From Candidatus Multivoradales bacterium (GTDB lineage Bacteria > Acidobacteriota > Thermoanaerobaculia > Multivoradales > Multivoraceae): a stretch of DNA of 64,000 nt. The notes beneath the pieces were generated by a model. It was not told the origin of the DNA. It saw only the letters and a list, made by a program, of their open reading frames with translations, and ran no database searches. The stretch lies in the NCBI GenBank assembly GCA_965223325.1, contig CBDCWI010000002.1, forward strand, positions 736,001-800,000, given 5' to 3'. The position numbers and the translations under genes are program-made. Of the stretch, positions 37,803-41,840 are shown in pieces (within the stretch, counting starts at the first letter, position 1; the number at the start of each line of letters is the position of its first letter).

Positions 37803-40121
37803 GTGACCACCAAGCGCATGCTCATCAACGCGCGCAACCCAGCAGAACTGCGGGTCGCGTTGGTCAGCGACAAAACACTCGACGACCTCAAGGTCGACGT
37901 TGCCGAACGCGGACTGACCCGCGGCAACATCTACTACGGCGTTATCTCCAACGTTCAACCGAGCCTCAACGCCGCCTTCATAGACTATGGGGCGGAACGC
38001 AACGGCTTCTTGACGATTCAAGATGTTGTCCCCGAGGCCTACCACAAGAAGTACACCAAGAAGAGCCGGCCGAAGATCGAGGAGGTCCTAGAAGACAGGA
38101 AATCCCTCCTGGTTCAGGTGTCGCGCGAACCCGAGGGCCAGAAGGGTTCGGCTCTGACGACCAACCTGTCGCTGGCCGGCCGCTACCTGGTGCTCACCCC
38201 CTACGACTCGACGCGCGGCGTTTCGCGCAAGGTCGACAGCGACGAAACCCGGCGCGCACTCAAGAAGCTCGCCACCTCACTCGACGTACCCGATGGCGCC
38301 GGCGTCATCGTACGCACCAACGCACTCGATCAGAACAAGACCACCCTCAACCGCGACCTCAATGCGCTCCTGCGCCTGTGGAAGCGCATCTCGACCGAGG
38401 CCGAACGCAACGGTCAGGTGCGGCTCCTCTACTCGGATCAAGACATCGTCTTGCAAGCCCTGCGCGACTATCTCGACACCTCGGTCCAGGAAGTCCTGGT
38501 CGACGAAGTCAACGCCTTCAACAAGGCGCAGGAGTACATTCGCGCCTTCATGCCACGGTCGCGTGTCCAGCTGACGTTCTACGAGGACCGGGCGCCTCTC
38601 TTCGCGCGCTACGACCTCGAGTCGCAGATCGATCGCATCTTTCAACGCACCGCACCTCTGCCGTCGGGCGGCTCGATCGTCATCGACCGCACCGAAGCGT
38701 TGACCGCCATTGACGTCAACTCGGGGCGTTCGACGAGGGCATCGAGCCAGGAAGAGACCGCGGTCAACACGAACCTCGAAGCCGCCGCCGAGGTCGCACG
38801 ACAGCTGCGACTGCGCGACATCGGCGGCCTGGTGGTCGTCGACTTCATCGACATGCGGGCGCGCAAGAACCAGCGACGGGTCGAACGCGCGCTGATTGAC
38901 GCCCTCAAGCCCGACAAGGCACGCGCCACGGTCGGCAGAACCAGCTCCAACGGTCTCGTCGAAGTCAATCGCCAGCGCATCCACCAGGCAATCCAGGTAC
39001 GCACTCAGCGTGTGTGCCCCAACTGCGCCGGCACCGGGCGCGTGCCGAGCCCCGACATCGTCTCACTCCACATCCTGCGCGAGCTGCAAGCACGCTGCCA
39101 GGACGGTTCGATCGAGCGGGTGCGCATTCGTTTGCACCCCGAACTGGCAGACGCCTTCCAGAACATGCGACGCACCGAACTCGCCACCATCGAGAAGGAG
39201 CTCGACGTACGCATCGAGATCCTCTCTTCGATGAAGCTCGGTCCAACCGAACGCGACATCGACTGGTACGCGCGAGCAGCCCTGCGGCGCGGACCCGTCG
39301 TTCGAACCGCGGCGGAGGCAGCCGTTGCCAACATCTCCGAGGCAGCGGATGACGCACGCAGCTCGCGCTCGCGGCCTGCCAAGAAGTCCAAGACCACCAA
39401 GAAACGCAAGACGCGAAAACGACGCACCGACGCGAAGTCGAAGAACGAGGGTACCGAGGCAACCAAGGCCAAGGGCAGTGACGGCGAAGACAACGAGGAC
39501 GAGGAAGCGCCACGGAGGCGGACTCGTCGCCGACGTTTGCGCGGTGGGCGAAGCAGGTCACGGCGTAGCAAGAGCGACGAAACCCCAACCGATGATGATG
39601 CGATCGAGGCAGCAGCGGATGACGTCGCCGAGGGCGGGGACGGCGAGACGGATAGGGACGGTGACGAAAAGCCGGCCCGGCGCCGGCGCCGTTCCCGCGG
39701 TGGACGAGGGCGCGGTCGCAGGGCGTCCGAGAGCGGAGACCCGGGTGACAGCGACGACGGCGCGGCCACCAGCGATGCGTCACCTTCAGCAAACGGGGAT
39801 GAAAAGGAACGCCCCGCGCGGCGTCGGCGCACGCGCGGCGGTCGCGGTCGTGGACGACGCGTTGCGGCGAGCGACGCGGAAGAATCGAGCGCAACGAGCG
39901 GTGACGACAAGCGAGCGGAAGCCGACTCCGACGGTCCTGAGAAACCCGCTCGCTCCAGGAGAAAGACGCGGCGGACCAGAGCTGGCGCTTCCGACACCTC
40001 CGAGAAGAGCGGAGCTGAGACGGGCGCGATCGAGGCGCCTCCCAGGGCCGCCGCCAGCACCGACAGCGGTGCCGGGCGTAGCTGGGCACGCGCCGAGCCA
40101 CCACCCGAAGACCAGAGCTGA
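37803..40121 (+). CDS. rne: ribonuclease E/G family with long disordered C-terminal region
   Basis: GNIY, AAFIDYG, IDVNSG, TNLEAA, LRDIGGLVVVDFIDM and CPNCAGTG Zn-link; Arg/Asp-Glu block tail. Confidence 0.93.
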   Translation: MTTKRMLINARNPAELRVALVSDKTLDDLKVDVAERGLTRGNIYYGVISNVQPSLNAAFIDYGAERNGFLTIQDVVPEAYHKKYTKKSRPKIEEVLEDRKSLLVQVSREPEGQKGSALTTNLSLAGRYLVLTPYDSTRGVSRKVDSDETRRALKKLATSLDVPDGAGVIVRTNALDQNKTTLNRDLNALLRLWKRISTEAERNGQVRLLYSDQDIVLQALRDYLDTSVQEVLVDEVNAFNKAQEYIRAFMPRSRVQLTFYEDRAPLFARYDLESQIDRIFQRTAPLPSGGSIVIDRTEALTAIDVNSGRSTRASSQEETAVNTNLEAAAEVARQLRLRDIGGLVVVDFIDMRARKNQRRVERALIDALKPDKARATVGRTSSNGLVEVNRQRIHQAIQVRTQRVCPNCAGTGRVPSPDIVSLHILRELQARCQDGSIERVRIRLHPELADAFQNMRRTELATIEKELDVRIEILSSMKLGPTERDIDWYARAALRRGPVVRTAAEAAVANISEAADDARSSRSRPAKKSKTTKKRKTRKRRTDAKSKNEGTEATKAKGSDGEDNEDEEAPRRRTRRRRLRGGRSRSRRSKSDETPTDDDAIEAAADDVAEGGDGETDRDGDEKPARRRRRSRGGRGRGRRASESGDPGDSDDGAATSDASPSANGDEKERPARRRRTRGGRGRGRRVAASDAEESSATSGDDKRAEADSDGPEKPARSRRKTRRTRAGASDTSEKSGAETGAIEAPPRAAASTDSGAGRSWARAEPPPEDQS

Positions 40122-40135
40122 AGGGGTCCGCAAGG

Positions 40136-40179
40136 TTCAAATAGAACGGCCCCGCCGCCTGTCTAGGCTGCGGGGCCGT
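40136..40179. terminator. terminator hairpin between rne and the convergent minus-strand RNA
   Basis: ACGGCCCCGC (40146-40155)/GCGGGGCCGT (40170-40179) stem; T-rich tail (TCTATTT) on the minus strand. Confidence 0.75.
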
Positions 40180-40360
40180 GTGCCTGACGATTGGACGTCA
40201 GGGCTTGGCTGCCCGGGAGCTTGGCGGCAGGGCCTTTCGGTCAGAGCGACGGAAAGAGCGCTGCGGAGCCAGGTCGCGAGCTGTGGTTGACTCGAACTGG
40301 TGGCGATGGGTAACCCTTTGAAGCTACGCCACGGCCACCGAATCGGAGCCCGTAGCTACC

Positions 40361-40405
40361 CTACGGGATCGCCACCTCGTTCAAGTCGCTATAAGAATGT
40401 TGCAC
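40361..40405 (-). CDS. putative 14-aa micropeptide MQHSYSDLNEVAIP
   Basis: AAGGAGGT at 40412-40419, 6-nt spacer, GTG at 40405 and TAG at 40361-40363. Confidence 0.45.
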   Translation of the reverse strand: MQHSYSDLNEVAIP

Positions 40406-40544
40406 TCGACCACCTCCTTCATGGGGCGCGTCTCAGGTGTAGCGGGTCCCACCCCGCCCGATTCCAGGCGCCGCCCGAAGCGGTCCAGAACCGCCGCCAC
40501 CGCTGCCCCAGGGAACCTGGTCGGTGACGGATGACGATGACGAC

Positions 40545-40573
40545 ATTGTCTTCATTCGATAGCCTTCTGTCAA
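40545..40573 (-). promoter_or_regulatory. sigma70-type promoter
   Basis: TTGACA (40568-40573), 17-nt spacer, GACAAT (40545-40550). Confidence 0.75.
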
Positions 40574-40598
40574 TAACGGGGAAGAGAGAGAATCAAGA

Positions 40599-41840
40599 AT
40601 GAGCAAGCGACTCGGCATTGGCTTCGTTGGCAGCGGCTTTATCACCAAGTTCCACATCCGTTCCTTCGAGAGCGTGCGCTCGGCGGACGTCCTGGGGGTC
40701 TGGAGCCCCAACCACGAGCACGCCAGCGAGGCCGCTCAGTTGGCTAGTTCACTGGGAGTCGGCGAAGCCAGGGCCTTCTCGTCCCTGCGTGAAATGGCGA
40801 TGGCGCCGGAGATTGACGCCATCTGGCTGTGCGGGCCGAACCACCAACGCGTCCAGAACATGGAAGAGGTCGCGCTGTCACAAGAGGACGGCGCCCGCTT
40901 GATCGGGGTGGCGTGTGAGAAACCGCTCGGGCGGAATGTCGCTGAAGCCCGAAGGATGCTCGAGTTGGTGCGCGAGGCGGATCTTCTCGACGGCTACCTC
41001 GAGAACCAGGTCTTCTCTCCCGCCGTGGTGCGCGGGCACGAGTTGGCCTGGAGTCGCGGCGCCGCAACCAGTGGCCGCCCGTATCTGGCGCGCGCCGCCG
41101 AAGAGCACGCCGGCCCGCACGCTGCCTGGTTCTGGCAGGGTGACCTGCAAGGTGGCGGGGTGCTCAACGACATGATGTGTCACTCGGTTGAGGTGGCGCG
41201 CTACCTCCTCACCGCGCCCGGCGCGCCGCGCAACAGCATCACGCCGCGGCGCGTCAACGCTCAGATCCATTGCCTGAAATGGCAACGGCCCGCCTACGCG
41301 CAAGACCTCGCCGAGCGATTCGGTTCCAGCGTCGACTACCAGCAACGTCCGTCGGAAGACTTCGCGCGGGTGCTCGTCGAATACACCGGTGAGGAGGGCG
41401 AGCCATTGATCGTCGAGGCGACAACCTCCTGGAACTACGTCGGGCCCGGGCTGCGCCTGTCGATGGAGCTCCTCGGGCCCGAGTACTCGATGCAGGCGTC
41501 GAGTCTCGACACCGAGCTGCGGCTGTTTCTCGGGCGTGACCTCCAGCAGGCAACCGGGGAGGACCTGGTCGAGAAACAGAACGCCGAAACCGGGCTCATG
41601 CCCGTCTTGCCCGATGAGTCCGGCGCCTATGGCTACGACGCCGAGAACCGCCACATGGTGCAAAGCTTCCTCGCTCGGCAACGCCCTCGCGAGACGTTCG
41701 AGGACGGCCTTGCGGTCACCGAGCTCCTGATGGCCGCCTACAAGAGCGCCGAAGAGGGACGGCGGATCGATCTTCCCGTCGACGATCTCGAGGGCTTCCG
41801 TCCCGCAGTCGCCCAGGGCACATGGAAGCCCGGCAACTGA
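40599..41840 (+). CDS. Gfo/Idh/MocA family oxidoreductase
   Basis: GFVGSGFI, ACEKPL and GGGVLNDMMCH. Confidence 0.92.
   Translation: MSKRLGIGFVGSGFITKFHIRSFESVRSADVLGVWSPNHEHASEAAQLASSLGVGEARAFSSLREMAMAPEIDAIWLCGPNHQRVQNMEEVALSQEDGARLIGVACEKPLGRNVAEARRMLELVREADLLDGYLENQVFSPAVVRGHELAWSRGAATSGRPYLARAAEEHAGPHAAWFWQGDLQGGGVLNDMMCHSVEVARYLLTAPGAPRNSITPRRVNAQIHCLKWQRPAYAQDLAERFGSSVDYQQRPSEDFARVLVEYTGEEGEPLIVEATTSWNYVGPGLRLSMELLGPEYSMQASSLDTELRLFLGRDLQQATGEDLVEKQNAETGLMPVLPDESGAYGYDAENRHMVQSFLARQRPRETFEDGLAVTELLMAAYKSAEEGRRIDLPVDDLEGFRPAVAQGTWKPGN

Follow-up and report, generated by a model that had tools for sequence, protein, structure and literature searches.

A stretch of 64,000 nucleotides (nt) from Candidatus Multivoradales bacterium (assembly GCA_965223325.1, contig CBDCWI010000002.1, positions 736,001 to 800,000), referred to here as the window, was analyzed for a small gene on its minus strand in which an extended Shine-Dalgarno (SD) sequence, SD1, precedes a micro open reading frame (ORF) with a second SD-like element, SD2, inside it. 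The gene is housed in an intergenic gap. The RNase E/G gene on one side converges on it and the Gfo/Idh/MocA oxidoreductase gene on the other side diverges from it. The features of the locus are shown in Table 1 with their positions in the window. An RNA of approximately 400 nt is predicted from the sequence, which would start at ~40537 and run to ~40138 on the minus strand; a search for public sequencing runs listed none of RNA.

Table 1. Features of the locus. Paired cells and compensatory changes refer to a hand-placed structure scored on the 40-sequence alignment A1 (MAFFT).
Feature	Positions	Strand	Description
RNase E/G gene	37803-40121	+
Intergenic gap	40122-40598		Houses the element (minus strand)
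Gfo/Idh/MocA oxidoreductase gene	40599-41840	+
Promoter-like site	40545-40573	-	TTGACA-17 nt-GACAAT; 1 site found, 0.1 expected in shuffles
Structured 5' domain	40421-40537	-	Hairpins P1, P2 and P3 and a likely pseudoknot (alignment A1)
Hairpin P1	~40530-40494	-	95.5% of cells paired; compensatory changes at 4 of 5 pairs
Hairpin P2	~40493-40459	-	66.8% of cells paired; badly aligned
Hairpin P3	~40458-40441	-	GGGCGGG/CCCGCU; 98.3% of cells paired; compensatory changes at 3 of 6 pairs
Likely pseudoknot	40476-40472 with 40428-40424	-	P2 loop GGGCG with CGCCC just 5' of SD1; 86.1% paired; compensatory changes at 2 of 7 pairs
SD1	40408-40420	-	GAAGGAGGTGGTC; 13 contiguous pairs with the genome's own 16S 3' tail
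Micro-ORF	40361-40405	-	GTG 40405-40403, 14 sense codons MQHSYSDLNEVAIP, TAG 40363-40361
SD2	40370-40378	-	GAGGTGGCG, inside the ORF; also 5' strand of rod helix H1
Rod (helices H2 and H1)	40289-40387	-	Has the stop-codon hairpin(s) and two more hairpins inside it; predicted folds
Rod helix H2	40387-40379 with 40297-40289	-	GACTTGAAC with GTTCGAGTC (predicted folds); 61.3% of cells paired
Rod helix H1	40376-40368 with 40307-40299	-	GGTGGCGAT with ATCGCCACC (predicted folds); GGUGGCG/CGCCACC; 99.3% of cells paired; compensatory changes at 2 of 7 pairs; hardly varies
Stop-codon hairpin(s) (helix 7)	40349-40367	-	CCC-GTA-GGG (in fold) or CCCGTAG/CTACGGG; 66.7% of cells paired; compensatory changes at 3 of 5 pairs
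Terminator-like hairpin	40138-40177	-	GGCCCCGC...GCGGGGCC then GTTCTATTTG; GC-rich, U-rich tail; predicted 3' end

Shine-Dalgarno element and its distribution

The minus strand reads AAGGAGGTGGTC (40419-40408), followed by GA and the GTG start codon. These letters, the ORF with its TAG and the strands of the stop-codon hairpin lie exactly where the original prediction had placed them. The single 16S gene detected in the genome ends ...GGCTGGATCACCTCCTTTCT, and because of this end the 12 nt at 40419-40408 pair contiguously with the 16S tail with one G-U pair; the predicted pairing is thus confirmed with the genome's own 16S sequence. Addition of G40420 gives a run of 13 contiguous pairs, two of them G-U. 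Beyond the run lie a G-G mismatch at 40407 and three more possible pairs at 40406-40404, which include the G of GTG. GGAGG and the start codon are 7 nt apart, and the usual optimum for the spacing between an SD and its start codon is 5-9 nt.

SD1 had also been claimed to extend far beyond a normal SD. A total of 11 sites with at least 13 contiguous pairs and at most two G-U pairs were found in the 6.69-Mb genome (64% G+C); the window's site and one antisense to the 16S gene are among them. Within the genome, the length of SD1 alone is therefore not beyond chance, about ten other sites being as long. Across genomes, by contrast, the exact 17-nt pattern of SD and GTG was found in 38 of 401 sampled genomes of the window's phylum, with one match in each, against four matches for a reversed-pattern control. 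The 38 genomes include the window's own and the unpublished genome G189, the locus of which was not read; without G189 the count is 37 of 400. This recurrence clearly exceeds chance. Among 29 of these loci that were read, 24 carry an ORF of 14-16 codons of the same build: GAGGTGGC with a stop 15 nt on occurs in 19 loci, and ORFs of 15-16 codons ending EVPVT or EVPGT occur in five. The remaining loci comprise one ORF of six codons and four sites that precede long ORFs.

When one mismatch was allowed within the window's class, control matches were as frequent as true-pattern matches and none of the 15 new loci read was a member. For the other orders of the class, absence of the element therefore means only that this pattern did not detect it there. 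One look-alike with a single mismatch, AAGGGGGTGATCGAGTG (genome G000, contig C1, ~891,297, plus strand), lies in coding-like surroundings without the build of ORF and SD2 and was set aside as a chance match.

Of 41 related genomes searched at the DNA level, 14 gave a match, one of them being the window's own genome. Ten of the 13 foreign matches carry the element, once per genome, and alignment revealed the other three (L010, L011 and L013) to be spurious. Common to the 11 loci (the window and ten relatives) are TTGACA, aligned in the same block in all 11, the set of 5' hairpins, CCC-AAGGAGGTG(G/A)TCnrGTG, an open frame of 14-15 codons, a second GGAGGTGGCG in frame, a stop in a small hairpin and a downstream CGCCACC.

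A scan of one genome per species with the exact pattern AAGGAGGTGRTCNRGTG, 15-36 nt, GAGGTGRC matched at least 117 stretches. By record title, the 80 records among the matches listed comprise Acidobacteria-type labels (40), 'Candidatus Multivorans' (3), Planctomycetota-type (12), Nitrospirota-type (6), Eisenbacteria (5), Krumholzibacteriia (4), Leptospirales or Leptospira (2), Binatia (1), 'Proteobacteria bacterium' (1), alpha-proteobacteria (2) and unclassified (4). The 119 non-redundant loci of the family served as the test set for the analyses that follow, and the pattern scan had imposed no requirement for an open frame. In 114 of the 119, the SD1 run measures 16-19 nt with G-U pairs allowed, most of these runs having at least one. 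At the free position of TC-N-RGTG, 84 of the 119 loci have C and 30 have T, either of which could form a pair with the G in the 16S tail.

Micro-ORF, stop position and RNA structure

Analysis of the stretch between GTG and SD2 revealed no in-frame stop in 947 triplets, against 53 of 856 and 94 of 830 in the other two frames; the number of loci with at least one stop is 0, 48 and 76, respectively. The spacer between GTG and SD2 is 21-37 nt and differs within lineages by multiples of three. ORF length is 12-17 codons in 124 of 128 loci, and TAG is the stop codon in 75 of the 119. The distance from SD2 to the stop falls within three values in 113 of the 119 loci: 15 nt in 85, 14 nt in 26 and 16 nt in two. 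Counted from the G of GAGGTG, the stop lies 15 nt on in 85 of the 91 loci that read the block as E-V-A, 14 nt on in all 26 that read it one base off (R-G-G) and 16 nt on in the two third-frame loci. The stop thus stays at one place in any frame, and the GAGGTGG block is conserved as RNA and not as peptide. As judged from this comparison, the micro-ORF is under selection. Conservation among homologs thus extends to the SD, the GTG start, ORF length and stop position, and does not extend to the peptide across phyla.

Differences between close relatives number 25, 37 and 55 at the first, second and third codon positions, and 36 of 102 changed codons are synonymous. The third-position excess fits translation with a mild constraint on the peptide within a lineage. 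The peptides are nearly identical within genera and share no motif across lineages or phyla. Cysteine makes up 4.4% of their residues and occurs at least once in 43 of 101 distinct peptides; this enrichment may reflect either peptide chemistry or the RNA letters UGU/UGC. Most peptides of the alpha-proteobacterial small ORFs (sORFs) start with MSHCH. A true micro-protein gene, with a peptide of 12-19 amino acids (aa) as effector and an unusual ribosome-binding site that sets the dose only, would account for the frame kept open in 119 of 119 loci, the codon-position pattern, the identity within genera and the cysteine content. This explanation nevertheless meets a lack of conservation between lineages, a GAGGTGG block read as EVA in 91 loci, RGG-like in 26 and in the third frame in two, and the lack of a conserved partner gene nearby. 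In addition, the peptides of the comparable mRNAs rreB and rreR are reported by Hahn et al. (PMC5711450) to be unstructured and without an overproduction phenotype. We consider a micro-protein gene unlikely, though it deserves some weight.

The original prediction had likened the Pro-stop ending of the window's peptide to the TnaC arrest peptide and had judged a type I toxin improbable. The ending is present in the window and is not conserved: the last residue is serine in 44 loci, proline in 30, alanine in 18 and another amino acid in 27. A nascent-peptide arrest element of the TnaC kind or a type I toxin would suit a very short ORF embedded in structure and ending in Pro-stop. The peptide, however, differs by lineage, is read in another frame over GAGGTGG in part of the family and has no motif across lineages. 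It is also hydrophilic, with a mean hydrophobic fraction of 0.29 at lengths of 12-19 aa, which agrees with the earlier judgment on toxins; an antisense partner was not searched for. Likeness to TnaC is not borne out, and arrest and toxin functions are together given almost no credence here.

The whole structure places 77.3% of alignment cells in pairs, compared with at most 50.1% when the partners are slid. Its covariation is 0.198 against 0.153 in shuffles, and none of 500 shuffles is as high. The remaining helices are badly aligned, with 56-67% of cells paired. A pseudoknot between the P2 loop and the flank of SD1 is likely according to this structural model. The 5' domain is confined to some lineages, because a regular expression for the P3 motif matched 52 of 128 loci.

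Consistent with the original prediction, the ORF codons form the 5' arm of the rod, H1 and H2 both being found in the predicted folds. When the outer helix H2 was tested by swapping partners across the family, cognate arms gave -8.1 kcal/mol and non-cognate arms -6.4 kcal/mol, a modest signal, with 21 of 73 loci in the best 10%; 40 of 116 loci were left out of this test as their 3' arm was undetected or ambiguous. The window's own H2 (-14.0 kcal/mol) beats every non-cognate tail. SD2 shares its letters with the rod, and in 117 of 119 loci it is complementary to the 16S tail over 7-8 nt. From its GGAGG to the last sense codon there are 8 nt, or 7 or 9 in the other frame classes. Codons 2-5 contain 62% A+T, compared with 36% downstream, and are mostly unpaired in the window's fold (0.75). 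Taken together, the sequence comparisons indicate selection on each of SD1, GTG, the open frame, SD2, the stop position and the rod.

The 7-bp hairpin CCCGTAG/CTACGGG had been proposed as a structure that covers the stop codon in exclusion of the rod. It is present in the sequence and lies outside the minimum-energy fold, and what the relatives share is a shorter hairpin of 3-5 bp that holds the stop in or at its loop. The proposed translation-coupled switch is partly supported: the 3' part of the ORF supplies the 5' arm of a conserved helix, which makes a change of structure coupled to translation plausible.

An anti-SD-like CUCC/CCUC element occurs within 25 nt past the stop in 48 of 91 E-V-A loci, compared with 46 of 268 control windows and one of the 26 loci of the other frame class. 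The window's copy is CTCC at 40343-40340. Pairing of this element with SD2 or SD1 might give rise to an alternative conformer.

Known counterparts and proposed mode of action

As described by Hahn et al. (PMC5711450), rreB of Bradyrhizobiaceae is a 165-nt mRNA that encodes 14 aa and has perfect complementarity to the 16S 3' end over 17 nt, including the G of its GTG. The mRNA sediments together with 30S subunits, binds them tightly and is associated with them for the most part, not with ribosomes engaged in translation. It is translated weakly, and a stop in place of the start codon prolongs its half-life from 10 to 37 min (PMC5711450). Overproduction by 20-fold left growth of Bradyrhizobium unchanged, and the analogues, including the 18-codon rreR, are reported there from four alpha-proteobacterial orders only (PMC5711450). 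A literature search on rreB and Shine-Dalgarno gave nothing beyond the original paper, and the papers that cite it do not, by their titles, deal with rre.

The pair rreB/rreR is the closest known counterpart of the window's RNA. Like rreB/rreR, the window's RNA is predicted to be a free-standing small transcript with its own promoter and terminator; in both, complementarity to the 16S tail crosses the spacer and ends on the G of the GTG start, the SD region is partly paired by prediction, and the gene is single-copy in a variable genomic context. The core letters AAGGAGGTGATCCAGTG are identical in the alpha-proteobacterial loci fetched. The sORF has 14 codons in rreB and 18 in rreR, and L026, L176 and L177 encode peptides of 18 aa. 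The rre kind is defined by complementarity of at least 16 nt that ends on the first base of the start codon, and by a GTG start with about 14-18 codons; the window has 13 contiguous pairs plus three, a GTG at 40405 and 14 codons. Compared with rreB, the pairing of the window's RNA to the 16S tail is broken by a mismatch and covers fewer positions (13 + 3 pairs, not a perfect 17). The RNA is also longer (~400 nt as predicted, against 165 nt), carries a pseudoknotted 5' domain, forms a long rod from the 3' part of its ORF (both predicted), has an exact GAGGTGG 15 nt before the stop and shows no peptide similarity.

In the alpha-proteobacterial sample, the same letters of SD and GTG were found in 16 of 301 genomes, against two control matches. 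These matches have sORFs of 18 or 21-26 codons, with the exception of L163, which lies in coding-like surroundings. Of 17 alpha-proteobacterial loci, 11 have an SD-like, purine-rich motif at -16/-15 relative to the stop and eight have a strict GGAG/GAGG, counts made without a chance control.

A search of Rfam revealed nothing at the element, either with the window at gathering threshold or with positions 39900-40800 at E of 10 or less. The model RF02471 (Ms_IGR-5) touches the window's terminator hairpin only (13.8 bits, E 1.3, model positions 119-178, cut-off 45) and gave no match at the locus in a whole-genome search; RF01867 (CC2171, cut-off 75 bits) has no match in the window or its genome. 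Among the other family members, Ms_IGR-5 matches the Binatia locus L066 over its full length at 46.7 bits, above the cut-off of 45, and matches L044 (40.8 bits, E 7e-6), L025 (29.5 bits) and L024 (28.0 bits) over its full length below it. CC2171 matches four of eight alpha-proteobacterial loci at the element (L164, L167, L168 and L171; 79.7-101.3 bits), and weak full-length matches were found in the window's relatives L004 (26.3 bits), L012 (25.6 bits) and L027 (25.4 bits), with E of 0.12-0.2. The six matches below the cut-offs (L044, L025, L024, L004, L012 and L027) came from a search of 18 loci, of which the other 12, the window included, have no match to RF02471 or RF01867. The consensus of Ms_IGR-5, an actinobacterial small RNA (sRNA), reads GGAAGGAGGUGGUCC ... 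GUGAGGUGGCUGCCCGCUAG ... GCAGUCACC followed by a terminator, which corresponds to SD1, SD2 with a stop 15 nt on, and an SD2-complementary 3' strand; unlike the window's element, it is without GUG at the canonical place. Ms_IGR-5 is treated as a non-coding sRNA, expressed in Streptomyces, and the passages of these reports that deal with it give no function (PMC8079986, PMC8780764). The Caulobacter sRNA CC2171 has been detected by Northern blot in Methylorubrum, its role being described as unknown (bioRxiv 10.1101/2022.01.24.477521). A full-text search found no literature linking Ms_IGR-5 or CC2171 with rreB, or the two with each other. CC2171 and Ms_IGR-5 appear to be lineage versions of the same kind.

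Two other short arrangements share parts of the design. Minigenes consist of a very short ORF with a strong SD, and at translational-coupling sites an SD-like element stands at start-codon distance before a stop, at overlapping stop/start junctions. The window's element differs from both in being a conserved, single-copy chromosomal gene without a start codon that overlaps or follows its stop. A tmRNA-like RNA was ruled out because the element has an SD and a start codon. A decoy of the CsrA type, with its two GGA motifs, would leave the conservation of GTGRTCYRGTG unexplained.

Overall, our analysis suggests that the gene on the minus strand probably gives a structured mRNA of the rre kind, small and free-standing, that appears to act at the ribosome rather than through its peptide. 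Its standing as a separate unit is supported by the promoter-like site, the terminator hairpin, the variable neighbours and the one exact match in each of 38 genomes. In the mechanism proposed, the 16S 3' tail would pair with the extended SD1, by analogy with rreB, for which 30S binding is known. GUG 40405 would occupy the P site, with the A/U-rich codons 2-5 unpaired in the mRNA channel, and the 14 codons would be translated, a step whose importance is judged from sequence comparison. The ribosome would then have to open the rod, as the last nine codons make up its 5' arm. Termination would follow at a stop codon that sits 14-16 nt beyond the second SD (GAGGUGG), which puts 7-9 nt between its GGAGG and the final sense codon. 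Because this gap resembles the 7-nt gap between SD1 and the start codon, the anti-SD could re-pair during termination. The RNA would in this way keep hold of a ribosome at the start and at the end of a minimal round of translation, and the RNA's own structure and decay would be coupled to that round. Such a ribosome-tethering, translation-coupled RNA is plausible. In our assessment, the switch and ribosome-binding ideas survive, with experimental precedent in rreB, and those of an arrest peptide and a toxin fail.

Several points weigh against an rre-type mRNA at this locus. The window's SD1 is the weakest and shortest of the family, with 13 contiguous pairs against 16-19, and is mostly paired in the window's predicted fold (probability of being unpaired 0.25). 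Any lineage that evolves a super-SD would arrive at a similar SD1, and a shared SD1 is therefore no proof of common descent with rreB. Conservation of SD2 and the fixed stop could be structural because SD2 is a helix strand too. The third-position excess and the cysteine enrichment leave room for a peptide function. Finally, the role of rreB is itself given as unknown by Hahn et al., and its overexpression is without a phenotype (PMC5711450).

The ribosome could also be approached without translation, by an untranslated RNA that pairs with the 16S 3' end as a 30S decoy or as a factor for the 3' tail, the ORF being incidental. Two sites complementary to the 16S tail would suit this, as would the presence of rreB mainly with 30S and its weak translation. 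An incidental ORF, however, would not stay stop-free in 119 of 119 loci with 53 and 94 stops in the other frames, and the indels in multiples of three and the frame-matched stop position would be left unexplained. The lack of a growth effect of rreB overproduction tells against such a decoy as well, and we regard it as improbable. The same experiment weakens the earlier suggestion of a 'ribosome sponge' acting in bulk. A literature search on 'ribosome sponge' and Shine-Dalgarno found nothing.

Compared with what is known of the rre kind, the window's element is new in lying outside its taxa and Rfam models, in its extra 5' domain, in the exact SD2 within the rod and in an SD1 below 16 nt. Few natural RNAs have been shown to remain attached to 30S by way of an over-long SD, and the rre-type mRNAs belong to these. 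As judged by record titles, at least six groups other than alpha-proteobacteria have the same design; two Rfam 'sRNA' families seem to be variants of it, and selection acts on the open frame and on the stop position relative to SD2, not on the peptide across phyla. With this wider range, likeness to Rfam families and pattern of selection, what was a lineage curiosity would therefore become a broadly conserved device acting at the ribosome. In practice, such loci are better annotated as tiny mRNAs than as non-coding sRNAs. It is a tentative further idea that rreB/rreR (CC2171), Ms_IGR-5 and the clade of Acidobacteriota, Planctomycetota, Nitrospirota, Leptospira and others form one widespread class of 'two-SD' mini-mRNAs, with a super-SD of 13-19 nt at initiation and SD2 at termination. 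Members of such a class might retain or mark the ribosome for the full length of a minimal translation cycle and sense or regulate free 30S or the state of the 16S 3' end, rather than serve as ordinary coding genes.

Neighbouring genes and predicted transcript ends

Comparison of the loci revealed that neighbour genes vary between lineages, with no partner gene conserved across lineages; beyond the ten relatives, the comparison took in 120 ORFs from a set of 345 at 111 non-identical loci. A leader peptide or attenuator acting in cis on a downstream gene would have a similar layout of short ORF, alternative hairpins and terminator, and a gene with an RF-1 domain follows on the same strand in both Rhodobacterales-type loci (L176 and L177). 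The window's RNA, however, runs into the 3' end of the converging RNase E/G gene with no co-oriented gene downstream, and downstream genes differ widely or lie on the opposite strand in the ten relatives and in about 40 other loci scanned. An attenuator is accordingly very improbable. A leader of the Gfo/Idh/MocA gene or a 3' untranslated region of RNase E/G was rejected too, the element keeping its own promoter and its orientation to RNase E/G switching between relatives.

The RNase E/G gene adjoins the element in six of the ten relatives and in two named records (L005, L006, L007, L008, L009, L014, L037 and L042), with the element 150-230 nt downstream on the same strand. A local inversion is suggested by the convergent arrangement in the window. 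The adjacency may be plain family-level synteny, because other lineages are without it.

The terminator-like hairpin of the window was missed by a strict terminator scan, its T-run being interrupted. In the relatives, GC hairpins with T-runs lie nearer to the rod. The window's RNA has ~140 nt of extra hairpins between rod and terminator (40138-40288, minus strand), which the relatives are without.

The RF-1-domain genes stand after the terminator in the 18-codon rreR-like loci, at L176:1641-2096 (plus strand) and L177:880-1416 (minus strand), L177 being the same place as L026. From domain and size, we take the small protein to be ArfB-like. A ribosome-rescue factor beside a ribosome-binding mRNA at these two loci is suggestive. 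In one relative, four tRNA genes stand in a row near the element (L002:5-401, minus strand), probably by coincidence; rreB too is placed beside a tRNA gene by Hahn et al. (PMC5711450).

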